Virus record (IMG/VR): IMGVR_UViG_3300045303_000172
Span: 1-64,000 of that record
Source of the DNA: a virus
Length of the DNA: 64,000 nucleotides
Strand: one strand, 5' to 3'
The notes under the pieces are model-generated. The model worked only from the letters and a program-made list of their open reading frames with translations, made no database searches and was not told the DNA's origin. The translations under genes were made by a program, and so were the position numbers. Positions 14,343 to 26,597 of this stretch are shown in pieces. How positions within the stretch are numbered: position 1 is the stretch's first letter; each line of letters opens with the position of its first letter.

Positions 14343-14594
14343 ATGAAATTCATCGAACACCTTCGAGCGCATCAGTTTTACCGCCTCATCTGCGCTGAGA
14401 TGGGTTGGAAATCCGAACTTCCAGCGATCCGCCCGCGCCCGAAGTGGTTCCACCTCCTCAAGCGCAAGCCCGACGGAAACTGGTCGCTCTCCATGATCCT
14501 GCTGGATAAATGGCTCGTTACACCGTGGGAGAAACTCTGGTTCCGATTCTGGGATGCTTGCGTTTGGGTAGCGCTTAAACTCGGCGTGCTCTGA
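14343..14594 (+). CDS. Hypothetical Trp-rich protein
   Basis: Last + strand ORF; its end overlaps the end of the convergent giant gene. Confidence 0.55.
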   Translation: MKFIEHLRAHQFYRLICAEMGWKSELPAIRPRPKWFHLLKRKPDGNWSLSMILLDKWLVTPWEKLWFRFWDACVWVALKLGVL

Positions 14595-17500
14595 TCCCTC
14601 TCGAGTTACGACCTCTCAACCCGAAGCTCTTTACTCGAGCCGAACGCACTCGCGAACCACGCAAGCCTCGAATACCGTGGCTTCGAAGCCCTCGGAGCCC
14701 TGATTTAGTGCGGCCGCCACCCCGGATACCAACCACTCTCGGCACTCCGCCACCGCCCGCAATTCCACCGCCCACGGCTCCGCTGGTGGACAATCCAGGC
14801 GCGGCGCTTTGTCCACCCATGATCGAGCCGCCCCCGCGCAATCCGACGCTCCCAGCGCCTATTCCAGCGCCACCTGCAGACGCCCGGAGGCCGATAGACC
14901 GACTGGGAGCAGACATGGGCGCAGGACCCAGCGGACTCGCTGGCGCACGACCACCACCTCCACCGCCTTCCTCGTGGATATAATCAGGTTCATTGAGCCC
15001 AAACTCACGGGCGTAGGCTTGTCGACCTTTGACGAAGGTGTCCAATTCAGCCAACTGATCGGCTGGCAGAGACTTCCGTAGCTCAGCCATCTCCTTGTCT
15101 GTAAGATTGCGCCCATACGTGGCCATGAACGGGTTACGTGCGATGATGGACTTGTCGAACGCAGCTTCCGCATCGTCTCGGTCCTTGCCCGCTTTCACCA
15201 GGGCGTCAACACCCGCCTTGCGTTCGGTTCGGACGGTTGCCATGTCTGGGCCGCCAGTGCGGGACAGGGCGTTCACCACATTGTCCACCATGGCGCGGGC
15301 GGGGCCGTATTGAATGGCGCCGGTCTGGTAGGTGTTCGGTTTGATCTCGACGCCGACGGGGGCGTTGGCCGTCAGGATGGAGCGGACGTTGCTTTCCGTG
15401 TTCAACCCTTCACGGGACGCCACCCGGTTTAATAGCATCGCGGAGTCGGGAACGAACTGGCGGTAGAGATCGAAGAAAGGCCGAACGATCTGTTTGGTCT
15501 GCCACGCCTTCGAGAACGTCTTCATCACCGACTCGGCCATGCTCAGCGGGAAAAGCTGGATGCCATAAGCTGACATTCGTGAGCCCGGAGCCGCCGCCCC
15601 GAACAGGTTGACGACGGCCCGGCCAAGGATTGGCATCTGCCCGGCCATGTTCTGCACGTCTGTCAGGACAGCTTCCCCTGGGGTGCGCGACTTCCAAATG
15701 GGCCGGATCTGCGTTTCTTGGTTGTAGAAGAACTTTCGAATCCATGCGGCCAGTGGTTGGTAAACGGCGCCGAACGCGGACAGCAGAACGATCAGCGTTG
15801 CCATGTCCTGGAATTTCTCCAAGTCCTTCCACACCGCATGACGCGGATCTCGAGACCATTCCGAGAACGAGCGCGCGAGCTGGGCGTTATCGTTGGCGCC
15901 GTAGCCGAACATGAGCCCCGCCCACCGGCCAGCCTGCGTCTTGTAAAATGGGCGATTCTTGAACCCGGACTTGTTGATGTAATCCGCCGCACCACGGACG
16001 AGTGACTCGTATTTTTCGGGTGTGAGGAACTCGCGGAGCGTGATCGGAGGCGCCCCCGTCTGCCGACGCTGCCAGAATCGGATGAGTTCTTGGTCAAGGT
16101 TGATCCCCTCGGCGTCGAAGAAAGCCTTCAGATTAACCAAGTCGGCCGGCCGCGCATCCTTGCGCCCGAAAACTTCCTGGGCCGTTAGAACGGTCTTGCG
16201 CGGATCCAGTCCAAGTGTTGCCCGCGAATCGAGCGCCCGCTGGCTGAACCGGAACACCTCGCCGAGAATCCGGTTGGCCACGGTATCGGCCAGCATGTTG
16301 TTGACGGTGTCCACCGCCCCGACGCCCATCGAACGCGGCATCGGCACGGAAAGACTTTGCAACCCCATCTCGTTGGCGAGCAGGATGCCGGTCTTGAATG
16401 TGCCCCAGGCTTTGGACGCTGTGGTCTGTTTGCCTTCCCGGAGCTGGCCACCGCTCTGCCAATGGGTTAGGAGCGCATCCCAGTTGTAGCGCAACGGATC
16501 ATCGTCCTTGACGCCGATCTTCTGGAGCATCTCGACGCGGCCCTGCTGGCGCATCATGTAATCGGCAATGCCTCCCGCGAACTTTGCCCAATAGGATTGG
16601 TTGTTGTGCAGGTAATCAGCCATCGCCTTCATCTTCGGCGTGACTTCCGGCTGGTTCAGGATCGCACCAAGGATGCCTCTGACGGTGTTCGCTCCGTGCT
16701 CAGCCAGATACTTCGCGCTGTAGTAGGTGCCACCGATCACCGGATTGCGTTGCATCCAATTGTGGCCGGAGCGCAAGAGCGTCATCTCAAGCCACGCCTT
16801 CTTGAACGGCGCACCCATCCAATTCTGGAGCATTGTCGGCTTTCGGGACAGAACGGTATTAGCAATCAGGCTGCGCGTGATCGAGAGCGGCTCCAGCAGC
16901 CAATGATCGTAAGCCTTCCCGCCGTCCACATACCCGGCGATGTCTTTCAGGATAAGCCCAACCAGCGCCTCGTTCTCTTTGGCTTCCTCGAAGTTCAGGA
17001 AGTTCTCGCCGTTGATCTGGCCTTGGCGAATCGACTCCGGACTGGCCAAGCCTTTCAGGATCGCATCCTTCCAATCGTTCACCTGCTTCTGGATTGCCCG
17101 GTGCAAGCTCTGGACCTCGTTGACGTACCGCTGGGCGAAGATTTCACCAATTGAACCACGAATTCTGGCCTGCGATTCCTCGGTGCCGACGTGGTAGGTG
17201 TAAAGCCCGCGGGGAAGGATCTGCTTGCCGCGAGGCCGGTTCATGAAGTTCTCAGCCGACGTTACGTCGATGCGCGTCTTGTCCGGGTCAAGGATGTGAT
17301 CCTCGCGCTTTTCGTCCGCCGTGAACCGCGTAATTGTGCCGTCGATCTCTTTAAGGATCTGCTCACGGATGTCAGCCTTGGCCATCTGCTGATCAGGCGG
17401 CAAGTTCCGTTGGCGTCCGAAAATCTCGTCCACCAGGTCGGCGACAGAGTTGATATGCGTCTTTCCGGTAAGATCGCGCTGGCTCTGCAGGTCCTGGTAA

Positions 17501-20500
17501 ATCTTCTTGAACGGACTGTTCACGTCTGCCGCGTAGCTAGGGTCCTCGTGCGTTTCGATGTGCGAACGCAGCACTTGGTCGAGGTAGCGCGTGCTCAGCA
17601 GTCGATCGTACTCAGCCAGCTTTTGTGTGTCCGTCAGCTCGCTCGAGTCGTGGATCTTCATCCAGTCGCCCGTGAAGCCGATAGTATTTCGGGCTAGCCC
17701 GCGCGGCACCGTCATCCCGCTCGTGTCTTGAGCTTCACGTTCGAAGCGCAAATCTCCGATCTGATCCCGAGTCTTGATTGTCTCACCTTTGCCGGTGGCG
17801 AACCCGAGGGTTTCCTTGGCTCCTTTGCGCTGGGCATCGACGTACGCCTTCTGCGCCCGGACAGCGGCCATGTCCTCGGAGGTGATTACGTGTCCGTCGA
17901 TCTTATCTCCAACGCCGCGCTCCGGGGCACCGAGGGCGTTGTAGCCAGAGAGGATGCGGTTGGCGATTTTCTCCAACCAATCGTCCAGTTCCATCTTGGC
18001 TTTGGTGAACGCTTTCTTGGTTGGCTTCGTGGCCGCGATGCCCATCCGATTGTCGATCTGCTGGGACCGGCGCAGGAACTCCGAATAGTTCGCCAGTGCC
18101 CACATGCCCTTGGACGCGAGCGGCCCCCCTGACATCGCCGTAAAGAAAGCTGGAATGTTCTTCATGCCGGGGACATGGCGAGCGATGAAGTCGAATGCGT
18201 TGAATCCGCCAGCAATGGACTTGCCACTCTCTGGGTCCCAAAGCTGGTTCATCCATTTATTGGTGATGGCGGCAAGGTGTTCCTCGGCGAAGAACCGTTT
18301 CAGCGGGTCCGCGTTGGGATTCTTTGTCGGATCAAGATAGTCGGAATACCATCGCTCAGCCGTCTCTAGCGCTTTCGTATCAGCCAAGTAACCTTCACGG
18401 GTGAAGTTTTGGCGAAGCTCGACGCTTTGAGTTGGGTCGGCAGGATTGATAAAGACGGGGTGCCCCTCCTTGCTCTCTTTGTCCATGAGCGCGGCGGCGC
18501 CGGTCAGCTCCGTCGCCTGCTTGTAGTTCTCCTGGAACGCTGGATCTCGAATCGTGCGGTCGAGAAAGTCCTTCGCGGCGGCGACGTTTTGCGCTTTGGC
18601 CTGTAGCGCCTTCACGCGGTCGCTCATCTCTGGGTCTTTGATGCCAAGCAGCCGCTCCGCTAGGTTCGGCATGGACGCAACGGCCTTTTCCACCTGGGCA
18701 ACGACTTCCGGGGATGCTCCAATCTTCTGCGGGTTGGCCGCTTTCCAGGCCGCGAGCACGTCGGCGGCTGTCGATGCTGGATTGCGGAGCACGGCGTCTG
18801 GCGTGTCCTTCACCATTGAACCGAGCACATTGCTGCCGGACGATTCGATGTCAGTCCAGTTGGCCAGCTCGGCATCAGCAGCGTCTCTGGCCACGTCGTC
18901 GCCAGCCTTCACGGCTTCGGCGCGTTCCCTGAGAACCTGATCACGGCGCACGTCGATCACGGAACCGGACAGTCGCAGGGCGCGTTCTTTAGGAAGGGCC
19001 TCGCGTTCTGCCCTGAGCGCGCTGGACGCTTCCGCTGCTGTCTCCTTGGCCTTCTTGGCCATGTTCTTCTGATCCTGGAGCAAATTGAATATGGACGACT
19101 CCGCGCCCATGACGACAAGGGCTTGATCGTGGATCTCGGGCGAGACTGCCTCTGCAACCTTCCGAAGATCGCCAGCGGGAGCTTGGTAGGGCGCCTTCTG
19201 CATTTGGCCGGCCGCAGCCTGAGCCATGTTCATTGCCTCGATGCGACCGCCAATCTCAGGAAGCTCGGTTTGAACTTCTGGAGGGAGCGCGGCGAAGTCC
19301 TGGGCGACGTGGCCGACGGTGACTTGGTTCTGAGCGTGAAAGGCTTTGGCGAGCTTCAGTGCCTGCGGCTGCTTCATCCTGTCGAAGCTCGCCGTCATCT
19401 TGCGATACTCTTCCTCTGTGTTGATGGGGTTGAGGGAGAATTTGATTTCGTCGGGACCTGAGAGAGGATGATCCACAGACTGGCGAGACGAAGCAAAGTC
19501 AGCCACAGCTTTGGCTAGGATGTCACGGGCCTTTGTGACATCAGAGAAGAACTGGCTGGCCTTGTAAGGTGTCTCCCGAATGGCTGAAATGATTCGGTTG
19601 AACCAATTCAGAATGGCGTTGGCGACTTTGGAGAATAGACTTGGGTCCTTGGCCTTGAAGGCGTCCCAGAACTTCGGTTCAAGGAACTGCTCCCCCTGGA
19701 AATGGGCGATCAATTCCTCTTCCAGATTATCTGGTGATTCGTCGTAGCCTCGCTTATTTACGGCTTCACGCTCCCATTCGCCCAAATTCTGGGCCAGTGG
19801 GCGTAAGGCATCCCTGAGTCCATTGTAGAGGTCGGGGCTGAGTACCCGCATCTGGTGCAAGAGTTCGTGTCCCACCATGCTGAGAAGCGGTTTCGGATCG
19901 TTGGCGTCCACAAAAACCACTCCTCGCAGACCGGACACAGACACACCAGCACGGCTCCCTGGTGCCACATCGTCATGATATGTGACAACTCGGATTCCGA
20001 ACAAACGTTCAAGGAGAGCAGCTCCTCCCGCTTCGGATTGACTGAGACGTGCCCGCCCTGTTTCCTGATTTCTCTCGCCAAGTCCAATGTACCTAGCCAT
20101 CCCGCTATCACGCGCAAGAACCTCACCGAGTTTGTTTCGGAGCGTCCTGTCTTGTTCTGCTCTTGTGTTTCCATACTGTTTGAATCGGTCAAGTTGGTCT
20201 TGGCCTGTTGGGATTTCATGTTGTCGCTCTGCTGCGAGCGGCTCTTCTCCAAATCCTGTCGAATCCCATCCTGGCGGGTAAGGGTTGAGTGAGTATTTGG
20301 CTTCGGGGGGTTGGGGAATCTGCGCTTCCTCAGCCGCTTGCCTTCCCTGTTCCTTCGTCGGCAGGGATTCACTGAATCCTTTTGGCTGCTTGGTCGAAGT
20401 CTCAATCGCCTTCACCTTGGCCAGCATCCGCTCCAGTGCGAAGCGAGTCTTCGGAATCGTGAACGTCCCGTCGCCCGGAATGTCGAGCGTCACCGTTCCT

Positions 20501-23500
20501 GGATCTGGCCTAAATCCGGTTCCCTCAATTTCACTTTTCTTCGAGCTGAATTTCTTTCCTGACTCGTCGCTTATCGGCTTGTCAGAATGCCATTTATTGC
20601 CGGATAGAACCTGCTCCGAAGCCAAGGCTTTTGCATCCTCAAGTGGAAGACCTTCGGAAATTACCTGCCTGATTTTTCTCGCAGTCTTACCAGATAGAAG
20701 AGTGTCGCTAATTTCAACGCGCCAGCTTCCATCTTTATTTTTGATCAGCGTCAGGGCGGTGTTCAGTGGACCTTTATCCGTGAACACGTCGATCTTCTGA
20801 ATGCCGTTGTAGGTCTTCGGCTTTCCGAAAACTGCCTCGCCTTCGAGCTTAGGCAGCTTGGCAATCTCGGCTTCGACAAGTCCGGCGATCTCAGCCTTGA
20901 TGTCCTTCGCTGGCCGCTGGCCTTCGGTCTTGGCGACTGCCTTGACTTCGGTTTCGACTTTGGCCGCAGCTTGCGCTGGAGTCACGACGGGCTTGGCCTT
21001 CTGCTTTTCAAGCGCGTCAATCTGATCTTGGATCTTCGCCATGCGAGTGGCGATCTTGCGGGACAACTCGGCGGTGATGGGCGGTGGAACTCTTCCACCA
21101 AGCTTGGCGGTTTGCTTGTTGAGCGCCTTCTGCTCTTTGGCGAGTTCCTGTTTAAGCCCGGCAATTTGAACATCAACCCCCGCCGATTCCGCCGGAGTTG
21201 CCGGAGCGAGTTCAGGAATCGGCGCCTCGGGCACTGGAGTTGGAACAGCTCTCTTCGTCCGCATCCCAACCTTAGTCCCAAGATCTCCCTGCGGAAGTTC
21301 AATTCCTTGCCGCTGGAGGAACGAATTAACCTTCCCGCCGAGCGACTTAAAAAACTCCGTTTTATCGGCCTGATTCGTTGACTCCCGCGTGGTGTAGTTG
21401 TCGAGGTATCTGGCAATGTCTGATTTTGTTCCTCCGAGTTCCTTGAGCCTTCGAGCGGCAATAACTGCGCTCAGGAATCGGTCGTTGTTCTCACCCTCTT
21501 CGATTCCTCGATTGACGGCCTGAGTTAGCGTCATGGCGAGTTGCTCTCGATCTGTTTCGAGCGCAACCTGCGACGGATCGAAACGCTTATCCACTTCCCA
21601 AGATTTCCACGGTCCGCTGCGCTGATTGAATGGTCCATCGAAGAAAGCGGTAAATTTAGCCTGCTGTTCCGGCGTGAGCTTCTTCTCGAACTTTGCCGTG
21701 TCACGCTCTTCGGTCATGAAGCGTTGAAGAGTTTCCGCCTGCTCGTCATCCAACCCGATCTGCTCTTTGTAAAGCTCACGTTCCTCACGGAGTCTGACCT
21801 CTCGGAATTTGAGTAAAGCGTCCACTGAATCGAAAGACGCTGGTTCGGGTGCCTGTTTGATCGCCGTTGTTGGAGGCGTCTCTTCTGCCGGTTTGGCAAC
21901 TGGGGGTTCGGCGACTGGCTTCTTTGTGTTGCCACTGTTCAGCCATTCCTTAAATTGGTCCTTCGTCATCTTAGTGACGCCACCAACGCGATACATGCCC
22001 ATGGCGTCAGAAAAAGCTCGGGTGTAAGCGCCGACTGCTTCCTCCTGAGTTTGGAATCCGAGTAACGCTTTGTGCTCGTCGAACTTTCCAGTTTCGAGAT
22101 TCTTCTGGTCTACGACGTAAACAGTTGGCGCTTCGGGGTGGTCACCGACGTAAACATCAACATGGTCCTTGTCTCGGCCTACCGTGCCTTTGACGTAGCC
22201 ATAGTGCGCTGGCATCACAACTTCCCACGGCTTACCGTTTTTGTCGGTGCCGCTTCGGATCGAGCCTTTTGCGTTCTCGATGCTGATGTCAATGCCGTCA
22301 ATCGAGACGTGGCCTTTTTGAAAGTTCCCAGCTTCTTTCTGTGCCTCGGTGGGGTTCGGCTTAACTTGCGCAGCGGCTTGCTCAACAGCGCGTCGCTTCC
22401 TCAACCCTACCGGCTTCGCAGGCCGGGTTTCTTCTTGCGGCGGTAGGGTGGAAGCCCCTTGGCTTTCCGTTGGACTGAGAGGGCGATTGCCAGTGCTTGG
22501 CGGTGTGGTTTCCCCGCCGCTTCCTCCCGCTTGATGTTCTCCCCCACCGCCTTGCGGCTGGCTGACATTAGTAGTGGCATTTGGTCCTTTCTCTGCTGGC
22601 GTAACCACGGGCGCGCTCGGCGTAACCGGCGTTACGTTTTCCGGTGGTTTGGTTACGGGTGTGGACGTCGGTGGCTTGGCGAACGTGTCGGCTGGAAGTT
22701 CAGGCAACGCTGCTCTCGGCCCAACCCGCACGTTGAGTCCTGGCTGCAAGCCCACAGCTGAATACGGCAGCACAGTCACCTTGTTCTGGCCGTGATAGTG
22801 GACAAACAGTCCTGACTCATCACCGCCGACAATCACCCCGATGGGCACGCCTCGGGAATCAATCGTGTTCCCGATGTAATCCGAGACATGCGGCAATCCG
22901 ACGCCAATGATGGGTGCTGGCGGCGCCTTGCCTGCGTCGATGGCTTCCGCCTCCTTGTCGATGCGGAACTTCGTCTCTGCTTCCGCTAAGCCCGCGTCGT
23001 CGATCTGGCCAGCCCGGTGAGCTTTGAGCGCAGTGTCGTAGGCGACTTCTGGCGGAACAATGCGAGCGGGCGCTGCAACAGTGCTGTCCGGCGCGGCTGG
23101 CGCTCGGAGTTCGCTGATCCCATGCTTCACGCCGCCATAGGCGAATCCGGCCCCGATCAATCCACCGACAAGCTCGCGGGCGGCTCCCTCGGTGTCACCA
23201 TTGCTGAGAGCCTTGAAACCGGCAATGAGTTGGCCAGGGGACGAAAGTGCCATTTGCGCCGTGTAGGCGTGGGCGATGCCTCTGGCCGCGGCAGGCGAGA
23301 TTTCACCCATGCCCAGCGTCGTCAGGCCCCAAGGTGTCAGGAAGAAATCAGCTACGCCTGAAATCGCTTGCTGGAGTCCAGCTATCGGCTTTGCGGCACC
23401 TTCAGGCACACCGAGCGTCGTCAGGTCCTCGGGTGACAGTTTTGGAGTCTGCGGGAATTCTTCCGGCTGCGCGACGCCGGTCAGCATCGCCTTCTGTGCC

Positions 23501-23829
23501 GCTTCGGTCGGAGGCTCCGAAAGAAACCTTGGTATATCCCTCTCAAATTGCTGGCGTCGCTGTTCAAAACCTGACTGGACATCGGCTAACTGCTGCTCTC
23601 GGGCTGGAAAGGCTTGCGGAACTGGTGCCAGTTGAGGTTCAGCCATCAGAGGCGAACGAGACCCGGGTGGCTGCACATCCGGCCATTCGCGGCCGGTAAT
23701 TGGCGTGATCGGAGAGGGTTCCTCTATCGGCGCGAAATCCCGATTGATCGCTTGGAGAATTTGACCGTCATCCCAATCGTCAGGAAATGAGACTAGCCCG
23801 TGATTCGGAACATCTACGATCTTTCCCAT
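14575..23829 (-). CDS. Giant internal virion/ejection polyvalent protein with InPase-like and zincin (HExxH) domains
   Basis: 3084 aa at end of virion operon; PTEAQKEAGN...YGY..GT...D.DHVDV...DQ....FDEHK (about 22360-21935); GHELLH at 19869-19855; basic C-terminal tail. Confidence 0.9.
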   Translation of the reverse strand: MGKIVDVPNHGLVSFPDDWDDGQILQAINRDFAPIEEPSPITPITGREWPDVQPPGSRSPLMAEPQLAPVPQAFPAREQQLADVQSGFEQRRQQFERDIPRFLSEPPTEAAQKAMLTGVAQPEEFPQTPKLSPEDLTTLGVPEGAAKPIAGLQQAISGVADFFLTPWGLTTLGMGEISPAAARGIAHAYTAQMALSSPGQLIAGFKALSNGDTEGAARELVGGLIGAGFAYGGVKHGISELRAPAAPDSTVAAPARIVPPEVAYDTALKAHRAGQIDDAGLAEAETKFRIDKEAEAIDAGKAPPAPIIGVGLPHVSDYIGNTIDSRGVPIGVIVGGDESGLFVHYHGQNKVTVLPYSAVGLQPGLNVRVGPRAALPELPADTFAKPPTSTPVTKPPENVTPVTPSAPVVTPAEKGPNATTNVSQPQGGGGEHQAGGSGGETTPPSTGNRPLSPTESQGASTLPPQEETRPAKPVGLRKRRAVEQAAAQVKPNPTEAQKEAGNFQKGHVSIDGIDISIENAKGSIRSGTDKNGKPWEVVMPAHYGYVKGTVGRDKDHVDVYVGDHPEAPTVYVVDQKNLETGKFDEHKALLGFQTQEEAVGAYTRAFSDAMGMYRVGGVTKMTKDQFKEWLNSGNTKKPVAEPPVAKPAEETPPTTAIKQAPEPASFDSVDALLKFREVRLREERELYKEQIGLDDEQAETLQRFMTEERDTAKFEKKLTPEQQAKFTAFFDGPFNQRSGPWKSWEVDKRFDPSQVALETDREQLAMTLTQAVNRGIEEGENNDRFLSAVIAARRLKELGGTKSDIARYLDNYTTRESTNQADKTEFFKSLGGKVNSFLQRQGIELPQGDLGTKVGMRTKRAVPTPVPEAPIPELAPATPAESAGVDVQIAGLKQELAKEQKALNKQTAKLGGRVPPPITAELSRKIATRMAKIQDQIDALEKQKAKPVVTPAQAAAKVETEVKAVAKTEGQRPAKDIKAEIAGLVEAEIAKLPKLEGEAVFGKPKTYNGIQKIDVFTDKGPLNTALTLIKNKDGSWRVEISDTLLSGKTARKIRQVISEGLPLEDAKALASEQVLSGNKWHSDKPISDESGKKFSSKKSEIEGTGFRPDPGTVTLDIPGDGTFTIPKTRFALERMLAKVKAIETSTKQPKGFSESLPTKEQGRQAAEEAQIPQPPEAKYSLNPYPPGWDSTGFGEEPLAAERQHEIPTGQDQLDRFKQYGNTRAEQDRTLRNKLGEVLARDSGMARYIGLGERNQETGRARLSQSEAGGAALLERLFGIRVVTYHDDVAPGSRAGVSVSGLRGVVFVDANDPKPLLSMVGHELLHQMRVLSPDLYNGLRDALRPLAQNLGEWEREAVNKRGYDESPDNLEEELIAHFQGEQFLEPKFWDAFKAKDPSLFSKVANAILNWFNRIISAIRETPYKASQFFSDVTKARDILAKAVADFASSRQSVDHPLSGPDEIKFSLNPINTEEEYRKMTASFDRMKQPQALKLAKAFHAQNQVTVGHVAQDFAALPPEVQTELPEIGGRIEAMNMAQAAAGQMQKAPYQAPAGDLRKVAEAVSPEIHDQALVVMGAESSIFNLLQDQKNMAKKAKETAAEASSALRAEREALPKERALRLSGSVIDVRRDQVLRERAEAVKAGDDVARDAADAELANWTDIESSGSNVLGSMVKDTPDAVLRNPASTAADVLAAWKAANPQKIGASPEVVAQVEKAVASMPNLAERLLGIKDPEMSDRVKALQAKAQNVAAAKDFLDRTIRDPAFQENYKQATELTGAAALMDKESKEGHPVFINPADPTQSVELRQNFTREGYLADTKALETAERWYSDYLDPTKNPNADPLKRFFAEEHLAAITNKWMNQLWDPESGKSIAGGFNAFDFIARHVPGMKNIPAFFTAMSGGPLASKGMWALANYSEFLRRSQQIDNRMGIAATKPTKKAFTKAKMELDDWLEKIANRILSGYNALGAPERGVGDKIDGHVITSEDMAAVRAQKAYVDAQRKGAKETLGFATGKGETIKTRDQIGDLRFEREAQDTSGMTVPRGLARNTIGFTGDWMKIHDSSELTDTQKLAEYDRLLSTRYLDQVLRSHIETHEDPSYAADVNSPFKKIYQDLQSQRDLTGKTHINSVADLVDEIFGRQRNLPPDQQMAKADIREQILKEIDGTITRFTADEKREDHILDPDKTRIDVTSAENFMNRPRGKQILPRGLYTYHVGTEESQARIRGSIGEIFAQRYVNEVQSLHRAIQKQVNDWKDAILKGLASPESIRQGQINGENFLNFEEAKENEALVGLILKDIAGYVDGGKAYDHWLLEPLSITRSLIANTVLSRKPTMLQNWMGAPFKKAWLEMTLLRSGHNWMQRNPVIGGTYYSAKYLAEHGANTVRGILGAILNQPEVTPKMKAMADYLHNNQSYWAKFAGGIADYMMRQQGRVEMLQKIGVKDDDPLRYNWDALLTHWQSGGQLREGKQTTASKAWGTFKTGILLANEMGLQSLSVPMPRSMGVGAVDTVNNMLADTVANRILGEVFRFSQRALDSRATLGLDPRKTVLTAQEVFGRKDARPADLVNLKAFFDAEGINLDQELIRFWQRRQTGAPPITLREFLTPEKYESLVRGAADYINKSGFKNRPFYKTQAGRWAGLMFGYGANDNAQLARSFSEWSRDPRHAVWKDLEKFQDMATLIVLLSAFGAVYQPLAAWIRKFFYNQETQIRPIWKSRTPGEAVLTDVQNMAGQMPILGRAVVNLFGAAAPGSRMSAYGIQLFPLSMAESVMKTFSKAWQTKQIVRPFFDLYRQFVPDSAMLLNRVASREGLNTESNVRSILTANAPVGVEIKPNTYQTGAIQYGPARAMVDNVVNALSRTGGPDMATVRTERKAGVDALVKAGKDRDDAEAAFDKSIIARNPFMATYGRNLTDKEMAELRKSLPADQLAELDTFVKGRQAYAREFGLNEPDYIHEEGGGGGGRAPASPLGPAPMSAPSRSIGLRASAGGAGIGAGSVGLRGGGSIMGGQSAAPGLSTSGAVGGGIAGGGGVPRVVGIRGGGRTKSGLRGLRSHGIRGLRGSRVRSARVKSFGLRGRNSRGIRARRV
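22407..22580 (-). CDS. Nested out-of-frame 57-aa basic protein (MPL..S...ENI..E..AGKP..QA.AIALS type)
   Basis: AAAGGA-ccaa-ATG; MPLLMSASRKAVGENIKREEAAGKPHRQALAIALSVQRKAKGLPPYRRKKKPGLRSR. Confidence 0.75.
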   Translation of the reverse strand: MPLLMSASRKAVGENIKREEAAGKPHRQALAIALSVQRKAKGLPPYRRKKKPGLRSR

Positions 23830-23838
23830 TTGACATGA

Positions 23839-24663
23839 TTATTCAAGAGTTCCGGTTCTGGGATTCACTTTCCAGATTTTTGGAGAATTCTGAGGTGCTG
23901 TAGGAATCGGAAACGGTGTTCCTGTTCTTCGGAAAATTATTGCGCCTTGGCCTGGAACGAAACCGGAACTCGTAATGATCCGCATGTGTTGGTCAAATTC
24001 GCGCTGAGCCTCTTGCTCCTTGCGTTTCGCCTCGTTGAAAGCCTCCATCTTCGACCTGAGTTCGGTGTTCAACCTGTCAGCCGTCGCCTGCTTGGTCTTA
24101 TCCGGGTCGTCACCTTTGACCCTGAGCACAGTCTTATCTCTTTTGTCGCGCTCAATTAGTCCTTGGCTCTCCTTAGCCGCTAACTCGGTGTCGGTCTTGG
24201 CATATTCCTGGGCAGCTTGATCAAGTTGGGTTTTCGCATCCTGATTTTTCTTTATCAACTCCCCAAACGCACTGGCAAGCGAAGGTCCGAGGCTGTCGGC
24301 TTGCTGGGCGTATTCCTCGTGGACAGCTTGGATTCTTTTGGCTGCCGCACGCTCTGTGGCGGCGATCTTCTCTTCCCCGAGGTCCAACCCTGCAAGTCCG
24401 AGCTTCTCCCGAAGCGCCCTATCCTCTTCGGCCTGCTGTGCGCTCGTGTTGAATTCGTAAGCGTGCTGCGCCTGGTTAGCCTGCTGGGCGTAGAGATTCT
24501 GACTTAGAGCGGCATTTTGATTGGCCTGCTCCATTGCCATGCGTTGGGCCGCCTGTTGAGCGGCGAGCAACGAAGCCGTGAAGCTGCGGTCGCTGTTCAC
24601 GTCGGCTTGCTGGGCACCTTGAACCCCACCGTAGCTGTCGCCAAAGACAAATGGAAAGGCCAT
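23839..24663 (-). CDS. Internal virion (ejection) protein
   Basis: Q/A/E-rich helical protein directly upstream of the giant gene. Confidence 0.7.
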   Translation of the reverse strand: MAFPFVFGDSYGGVQGAQQADVNSDRSFTASLLAAQQAAQRMAMEQANQNAALSQNLYAQQANQAQHAYEFNTSAQQAEEDRALREKLGLAGLDLGEEKIAATERAAAKRIQAVHEEYAQQADSLGPSLASAFGELIKKNQDAKTQLDQAAQEYAKTDTELAAKESQGLIERDKRDKTVLRVKGDDPDKTKQATADRLNTELRSKMEAFNEAKRKEQEAQREFDQHMRIITSSGFVPGQGAIIFRRTGTPFPIPTAPQNSPKIWKVNPRTGTLE

Positions 24664-26096: not shown

Positions 26097-26471
26097 CTAA
26101 GCCAGATACAGAAGTGTGCGCCAGGGGTTAAGTCCGTCCCCTGCTTTCACGAGGCGCGTGTCTGTCTCCAATCCTAATTCGCCTTCTGCCAGCACCGGGT
26201 TAGCCTCCGTCCATTGAGCCGCTGTCCCGCGCCGAAGCTGGATCTTCGTCTTGCCGAGACTAGCAACGCCACAGTCGATGGGTTGCTGAACTTGCAGGTT
26301 GAGTTCGAGCGCGGTCTGAAAACGCTGCCACCAGTCGGCTAGCGCGGTGTCGATGCGTGTCACGTCATCGCGGGTGACGACGGGGTGCTGGAGCGCGGCG
26401 GAGAACTTCGGAGGCGCTGGAAGTGGAATCGCGCTCCTAAAGTTTGGCTTTATTCTGTTTGGAACTGCCAC
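26097..26471 (-). CDS. Small tail protein ending in an Mtd-N/hyaluronidase-N-like module
   Basis: KIQLRRGTAAQWTEANPVLAEGELGLETDTRLVKAGDG..PW..L.Y; start uncertain (GTG 26471). Confidence 0.75.
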   Translation of the reverse strand: MAVPNRIKPNFRSAIPLPAPPKFSAALQHPVVTRDDVTRIDTALADWWQRFQTALELNLQVQQPIDCGVASLGKTKIQLRRGTAAQWTEANPVLAEGELGLETDTRLVKAGDGLNPWRTLLYLA

Positions 26472-26597
26472 GCTTTTTCCTTTTTCGGTTTGCAGACAAG
26501 TCCCGGATGCTGCCCAATCTCCAAATGCCAGCACCACCGGGAGGAAATCCACCGATTGATTCGTGTGAACACTTTATCGGTTTTGGGATTATGAATT

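Follow-up and report, generated by a model that had tools for sequence, protein, structure and literature searches.

A probable nested gene in the 3084-aa virion gene

The sequence considered here is a 64,000 nt stretch of viral DNA (positions 1 to 64,000 of IMG/VR record IMGVR_UViG_3300045303_000172), referred to below as the window. On its minus strand, at 14575–23829, is a gene encoding a polyvalent or ejection-type virion protein of 3084 amino acids (aa) (P0002), recognized as such by an InPase match and by its position in the virion gene block. Wholly within this open reading frame (ORF) is a second gene of 57 codons (P0001; 22407–22580, minus strand, TAG included), offset one base downstream in the +1 frame of the host gene, the product of which belongs to the protein family phrog_2423. 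Read along the minus strand, the order is AAAGGA (22590–22585), ccaa, ATG (22580–22578), the 57 codons, and TAG (22409–22407). An original prediction, made from the letters of the sequence, had pointed to this ORF and its AAAGGA-ccaa-ATG start inside the giant gene; the coordinates were confirmed and the translation is exactly the peptide quoted there. As had also been foreseen, the nested gene would be missed by standard gene callers.

Between its two bounding stops the nested frame extends over just 74 codons, of which the ATG is the 18th, and the family match begins exactly at this ATG. Within the giant gene there are 18 same-strand ORFs of at least 40 aa, in DNA that is 57% GC, where a 57-codon ORF in an alternative frame is unremarkable. 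It is homology that sets the nested ORF apart, and none of the other 17 has a PHROG match. When the overlap is read in the nested frame, the GC content by codon position is 0.67/0.50/0.71, which resembles what the remainder of the giant gene has when read in the host frame, while the host-frame reading of the overlap gives an atypical 0.69/0.67/0.50; the composition therefore tracks the nested frame. No further copy of the phrog_2423 family is present in the complete 78,288 bp genome from which the window is taken.

The AAAGGA (22585–22590, minus strand) resembles a Shine-Dalgarno (SD) sequence and ends 4 nt before the nested ATG. By itself it is weak evidence, because most of the structural genes of this phage do not have a clear SD. 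Among the starts of the minus strand virion genes between 23829 and 47720, a recognisable SD motif is mostly absent, being present for a few genes and for the nested gene.

Membership in the phrog_2423 family

The nested peptide matches the phrog_2423 profile with an E-value of 1.4e-16, residues 1–48 aligning to positions 1–48 of the 52 in the profile. A phmmer search of 1.84 billion representative proteins returned 487 clusters at E ≤ 1e-3, the best matches being 62–74% identical over 40–55 residues (70% over 50 aa for the top match), and most of the matched proteins are 50–80 aa long with an alignment beginning at residue 1. The widespread small basic phage family described in the original prediction is real, and the nested ORF is a complete and intact member of it, with an SD-like site.

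Conservation was scored in an alignment of 40 sequences (A1), in which the nested peptide retains all nine invariant columns (M1, P2, L3, N15, E19, G23, Q28, A31, and I32) and all six near-invariant columns (S8, I16, P25, A29, A33, and R38). A family member is expected to have its own Met start, a total length of approximately 45–80 aa, and a basic tail; the nested peptide has its own start, a length of 57 aa, and the tail RRKKKPGLRSR, and its start and stop coincide with the ends of the family itself. An AlphaFold2 model based on the alignment is a confident helical hairpin (pLDDT 88.6; helices at residues 9–21 and 26–41) with a basic tail.

There is no Pfam match to the nested peptide at E ≤ 10, the DUF6496 (PF20106) model not being matched, and one Atlas cluster in which 10% of the members carry PF20106 is a lead only towards DUF6496. 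No significant match is present in NCBIfam, a sequence search of the PDB found no relative, and Foldseek against the PDB gave nothing under an E-value of 2. The structural matches in BFVD are family members only, some of them fused to a prohead protease or to Nudix.

The host gene and its domains

The host gene closes the block of virion genes, where it follows genes of 715, 453, and 274 aa. Between the first two of these virion genes there is a 151-aa ORF (26097–26552, minus strand) with an Mtd_N domain (PF18454, major tropism determinant N-terminal domain; E 5.4e-15).

Polyvalent proteins are very large and carry several unrelated effector domains joined by linkers. The host protein is of this kind, having 3084 aa and an InPase domain (PF18823, E 6e-50) at residues 495–631 (21937–22347, minus strand), a stretch matched also by many PHROG polyvalent families, which starts 20 codons past the nested stop. 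A zincin-like HELLH motif at residue 1321 (19855–19869, minus strand) is seen in the translation, with no profile match, and residues 1372–2982 are approximately 30% identical to the C-terminal part of P0062, a 4167-aa InPase/helicase-domain protein. The first 416 residues (22582–23829, minus strand) are an orphan N-terminal part for which no PHROG or Pfam match and no homologues were found, nor any relatives occurring as a free protein; its GC content by codon position is coding-type in the host frame (0.70/0.51/0.61). The linker, at residues ~376–494 (22348–22704, minus strand), consists of a Pro/Thr-rich part and a G/P/T/S/Q/E-rich stretch, the latter (residues 417–475) being the out-of-frame reading of the nested gene. 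The host frame here reads NATTNVSQPQGGGG, as in the original prediction. The best 120 InPase proteins share with the host only the InPase domain or distant C-terminal parts, and in none of these 120 does the phrog_2423 module occur as an in-frame domain.

It might be supposed that indels in a metagenomic contig have falsely joined an upstream gene, a small gene, and an InPase gene, given that the contig is derived from a metagenome and that the sole public run containing it is probably the one from which it was assembled. The record, from soil, is a complete IMG/VR virus genome with direct terminal repeats, and the Logan assembly of the likely source run, made with a different assembler at 46x, is identical across 21800–23900, with no indel. 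Both parts of the host gene are coding-type in composition and in one frame, and +1 nesting is present also in 11 other contigs from unrelated samples. Such an assembly artefact is therefore extremely improbable.

The phrog_2423 family in other phages

By tblastn the family is present in 321 phage records, chiefly Pbunavirus (59.5% identity over 42 aa), where the homologue is a free-standing 68-aa gene directly 3' of a MuF-like head-morphogenesis gene and one gene downstream of a portal-like protein bearing a C-terminal InPase domain. Nano-scale liquid chromatography with tandem mass spectrometry (nanoLC-MS/MS) of DNA-emptied ghost particles of Pbunavirus SCUT-S1 identified the product, ORF22 (7.46 kDa), by 7 peptides that cover 77% of its sequence (PMC6521218, Table 1). 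In uncultured phages, a free-standing copy is the next gene to a portal gene (phrog_156), on one side or the other, or else it precedes a gene for an internal virion protein or follows some other large virion gene. The standalone members thus adjoin portal, MuF-like, and internal-virion genes, in agreement with the earlier statement that the family usually lies near packaging genes, and the copy in the window, inside the last gene of the virion block, has a similar setting. The family protein would be expected to work in the capsid interior, where it may serve for anchoring or targeting or be a small protein associated with DNA or the portal.

The module is also N-terminal in longer proteins, including the prohead protease, Nudix, and proteins of 180–313 aa with a second conserved domain. 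Four of these last (P0272, P0273, P0274, and P0128) are the closest relatives of the nested peptide, with 76–82% identity over the module, and after it their second domain has motifs such as GSY-I/V-IPADIVSG, and LPGP near the end. In P0249 (551 aa) the module, at residues 1–45, is fused in frame to an InPase domain at 116–250, and this is the in-frame counterpart of the out-of-frame layout in the window.

A general association of the module with InPase was considered and rejected, there being no InPase within 6 kb of the module in the 160 loci of two family scans (L012–L091 and L107–L186). An InPase near a free-standing module was seen only in two Pbunavirus records (L001 and L187) and in L007, in addition to the fusion in P0249.

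Recurrence of the nesting

The loci scanned were 80 from IMG/VR and 80 from genome or metagenome-assembled genome (MAG) contigs, all with the family, followed by relatives of the hosts that were found. Intact copies starting with ATG occur in the +1 frame of large ORFs (595 to more than 1900 aa) in 11 other contigs. The host ORFs include those of 1846 aa with DUF7178 (L058), 1773 aa with LPD38 and phrog_14770 (L018/L092), at least 1921 aa (L097/L098), up to at least 1283 aa (L015/L093–096), and at least 911 aa (L101), with a further two, of 1458 aa (L149) and at least 1229 aa (L154), on Ramlibacter MAG contigs. Wholly contained, frame-shifted ORFs with their own start signal are present in the window (+1, ATG, AAAGGA) and in seven distinct nested copies elsewhere. 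There are SD-like sites in five of the six other nested copies (GGAG, AAGGAG, GGAGG, or AAAGGA, 6–7 nt before the ATG), and the string GAGAAAGGAC is common to L154 and the window. In L149 (5998–6130, plus strand) the invariant Pro2 has been lost (an M-L-K-K start), with the rest of the motif kept and GGAGG 6 nt upstream.

The hosts of L018, L097, L149, and L154 have long stretches in common with known polyvalent proteins. Around the nested gene, the window host, L058, L149, L154, and the L018 clade have no detectable relatedness to one another, and there are therefore at least five host-gene contexts, with homology to polyvalent proteins in four of them. No description of such an arrangement was found in the literature that was searched.

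In every nested copy (L058, L018, L097, L015, L101, L149, L154, and the window) the module is in the +1 frame of its host. Among 67 free-standing genes, the host-type frame is open in six and the other alternative frame in five; because both are open about equally rarely, frame openness does not account for the +1 bias. The third frame of the module is Arg/Cys-rich, and one possibility is that the bias reflects the -1 reading of the module, which would make a harmless hydrophilic linker where the third frame would not.

It might also be proposed that the module is never made alone and that it is instead part of a programmed frameshift isoform, joined by a +1 slip to the N-terminal 416 residues or by a -1 slip to the InPase cargo. 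P0249 shows that a module-linker-InPase protein exists in nature, the nested stop in the window is only 20 codons before the InPase, and the module is often the N-terminus of longer proteins. Every nested copy has its own ATG, however, with an SD at 6–7 nt in most, and the nested frame is open before the ATG for just 4 codons in L101 and 12 in L154. Beyond the module the tails range in length from 45 to 77 aa and have no slippery motif in common, and inspection by eye found no X_XXY_YYZ heptamer near the nested stop in the window, which makes frameshifting a very unlikely explanation.

Selection on the two frames

In the clade formed by L018, L097, and L015 the hosts are homologous on both sides of the nested gene, with 40–65% identity, and the nested start is in the same alignment column. 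The ratio of non-synonymous to synonymous substitution rates (dN/dS) was calculated for pairs from this clade over 43 codons. In the nested frame dN is 0.23–0.26 and dS 1.2–2.7, with dN/dS of 0.08–0.22, while the host frame, with the host ORF open, has dN/dS of 1.4–2.6. A frame-specific analysis of this kind had been suggested with the original prediction as a check, and in this clade it returned purifying selection on the nested frame.

The distribution of the differences agrees with this. Across all nested copies there are 322 differences at the third position of the nested-frame codons, against 202 and 155 at the other two. The nucleotide identity of the module is 0.73–0.80, compared with 0.40–0.55 in the flanking linkers (two L094 comparisons) and 0.62–0.65 in the downstream zincin domain, although between L018 and L097 the 100 codons just upstream, which are repeat-rich, have an identity of 0.81, above the 0.77 of the module. 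Where it can be tested, that is, in the L018/L097/L015 clade, the nested gene has thus long been maintained as coding sequence for a protein, and it is the host reading that has drifted.

Origin and interpretation of the arrangement

The states seen in the other loci bear on how the nesting arose. In L100 the small gene is free-standing, 15 nt after a 1224-aa gene whose similarity to the L018 host is limited to the repeat-rich linker. In L101 (2–2734, plus strand) an ORF of the upstream type crosses the small gene and ends approximately 50 codons later, without the zincin/LPD38 cargo; this abbreviated version of the L015/L018-type host could be either an intermediate or the outcome of truncation. 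In L018, L097, and L015 the same type of N-terminus runs on into zincin and LPD38 cargo. Together with the in-frame fusion in P0249, these states fit a read-through fusion of neighbouring capsid-interior genes. The original prediction had the small gene captured into the polyvalent gene, a direction that is less well supported, L100 and L101 fitting better with a fusion of the flanking genes by read-through across a resident gene. A search for neighbours of free-standing copies that are homologous to the halves of nested hosts found none, either upstream or downstream.

The explanation preferred here, to which a probability of about 0.72 is given, is that the nested ORF, a small virion gene overlapping the giant one, is functional and has a start of its own, and that its DNA serves at the same time to encode a linker of the polyvalent protein. 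Ribosomes initiating at 23829 would translate the stretch into a linker that is disordered and G/P/T/Q/E-rich and that connects the orphan N-terminal part with the InPase-zincin cargo, giving a polyvalent protein that would be packaged in the virion with this cargo. Other ribosomes would bind at the internal SD-like site and start at the ATG at 22580, one base out of frame, and this internal initiation would yield the 57-aa basic helical-hairpin protein of the phrog_2423 family. The small gene would be the older reading and the linker of the giant gene the younger, having arisen when the flanking genes fused by read-through across the resident small gene in a frame without stops. It is proposed that the small gene was retained because the phage has no other copy. 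The nested gene would then mark a domain joint, which in the window is that between the orphan N-terminal part and the InPase.

Several points weigh against this explanation. No close relatives of the host gene of the window were found in viral contigs or in metagenome contigs, and the evidence for selection is confined to other lineages. No RNA data set is listed as containing this DNA. This phage uses SD sequences sparsely and the 4 nt spacer before the nested ATG is short, while ribosomes translating the giant gene may hinder internal initiation. The intact ORF could simply be a recent capture. Nesting is also uncommon for the family, being seen in 5 of the 160 sampled loci, and a hidden Markov model of the out-of-frame "shadow" peptide found no match in the 119 other InPase polyvalent proteins. 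This last result bears as well on the suggestion in the original prediction that the linkers of giant virion proteins may carry nested genes. The same nesting does recur in other giant, mostly polyvalent, genes, but the wider suggestion is not supported by the other InPase polyvalent proteins, nor within this gene, where 1 of 18 ORFs has a family match. The observation made in that prediction is thus confirmed, while its interpretation is partly supported.

Some of the same points would suit a fossil, that is, a small gene swallowed by the fusion of its neighbours and now untranslated, the intact frame reflecting a recent event and the stretch serving only as a linker. No relatives of the host gene were found that could show retention, the SD-like site is modest, and the orphan N-terminal part is compatible with a young chimera. 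The preservation of the ATG, of the stop, and of each of the 15 conserved positions argues against a fossil, as do the lack of a second copy in the complete genome and the codon-position composition, which still tracks the nested frame. Moreover, other lineages keep the nested state through saturating synonymous divergence under purifying selection. Loss of translation is for these reasons considered unlikely, although less so than either an assembly error or frameshifting, and a functional nested gene remains the preferred explanation.

A broader and more doubtful proposal is that giant virion polyproteins grow by the fusion of capsid-interior genes across resident small genes, which persist as dual-coded (+1) genes where the parts were joined. 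Rather than being a passenger, the nested protein would be translated beside the polyprotein from one late mRNA and might help to load or anchor the polyprotein or the DNA in the capsid, and nested small genes might mark the domain joints of polyvalent proteins generally and form a hidden layer of the proteome.

For annotation, the nested ORF very probably adds a real virion-associated gene in a place where gene callers are blind, and the sole copy of a conserved head-module gene can evidently hide within another gene. Since polyvalent genes that are unrelated have this layout too, and have it in +1 without exception, the alternative frames of the linkers of giant phage genes merit routine scanning for homology. 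The arrangement also suggests a concrete way in which polyvalent proteins may be built up, with read-through fusions that run across small genes, and it would lend itself to simple tests of internal initiation within an ORF that is itself heavily translated.

Comparison with known systems

The lipoprotein Rz1 of phage lambda acts in lysis as the partner of Rz, and the two have evolved together as a pair. As in the arrangement in the window, the small gene of Rz/Rz1 is complete and has a start of its own; it is contained entirely, in the +1 frame, within a larger phage gene of the same strand and is missed by automatic annotation. In the window, unlike Rz/Rz1, the nested gene encodes a widespread and usually free-standing head-module protein, and the overlap is limited to the disordered linker of a giant virion/ejection polyprotein.

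The Pbunavirus genes (F8 ORF019 and SCUT-S1 ORF22) are like the window copy in their MPL N-terminus, their G-K-P..Q-A-x-A-I-A core, their length class, and their location in a late or virion block. The Pbunavirus gene is free-standing, whereas the window copy has no intergenic space of its own.

The host has much in common with the phage polyvalent proteins (Iyer et al. 2017, PMC5512222): it is likewise giant, has multiple domains including an InPase, and is encoded in the midst of virion genes, and its HELLH motif may represent a zincin-type processing peptidase domain such as these proteins have. Packaging followed by injection has been proposed for them (Iyer et al. 2017, PMC5512222), and searching that paper by terms turned up no mention of embedded genes. 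The N-terminal 416 residues of the window host, as a difference, match no known anchor domain such as MuF.

The arrangement also resembles overprinting in viral genomes, the subject of two reviews (PMC8227390, PMC3494269). In both there is an old, widely distributed frame and a younger frame that is compositionally odd and disordered, with dN/dS above 1 in the younger frame as a by-product of constraint on the old one. In the usual form of overprinting a new small ORF arises within an old gene, whereas here it is the small nested ORF that would be old and the linker of the giant gene that would be new, apparently through fusion. The window would thus provide a clean case in which it is the old frame that is small and nested, the new and disordered one being that of the giant gene.

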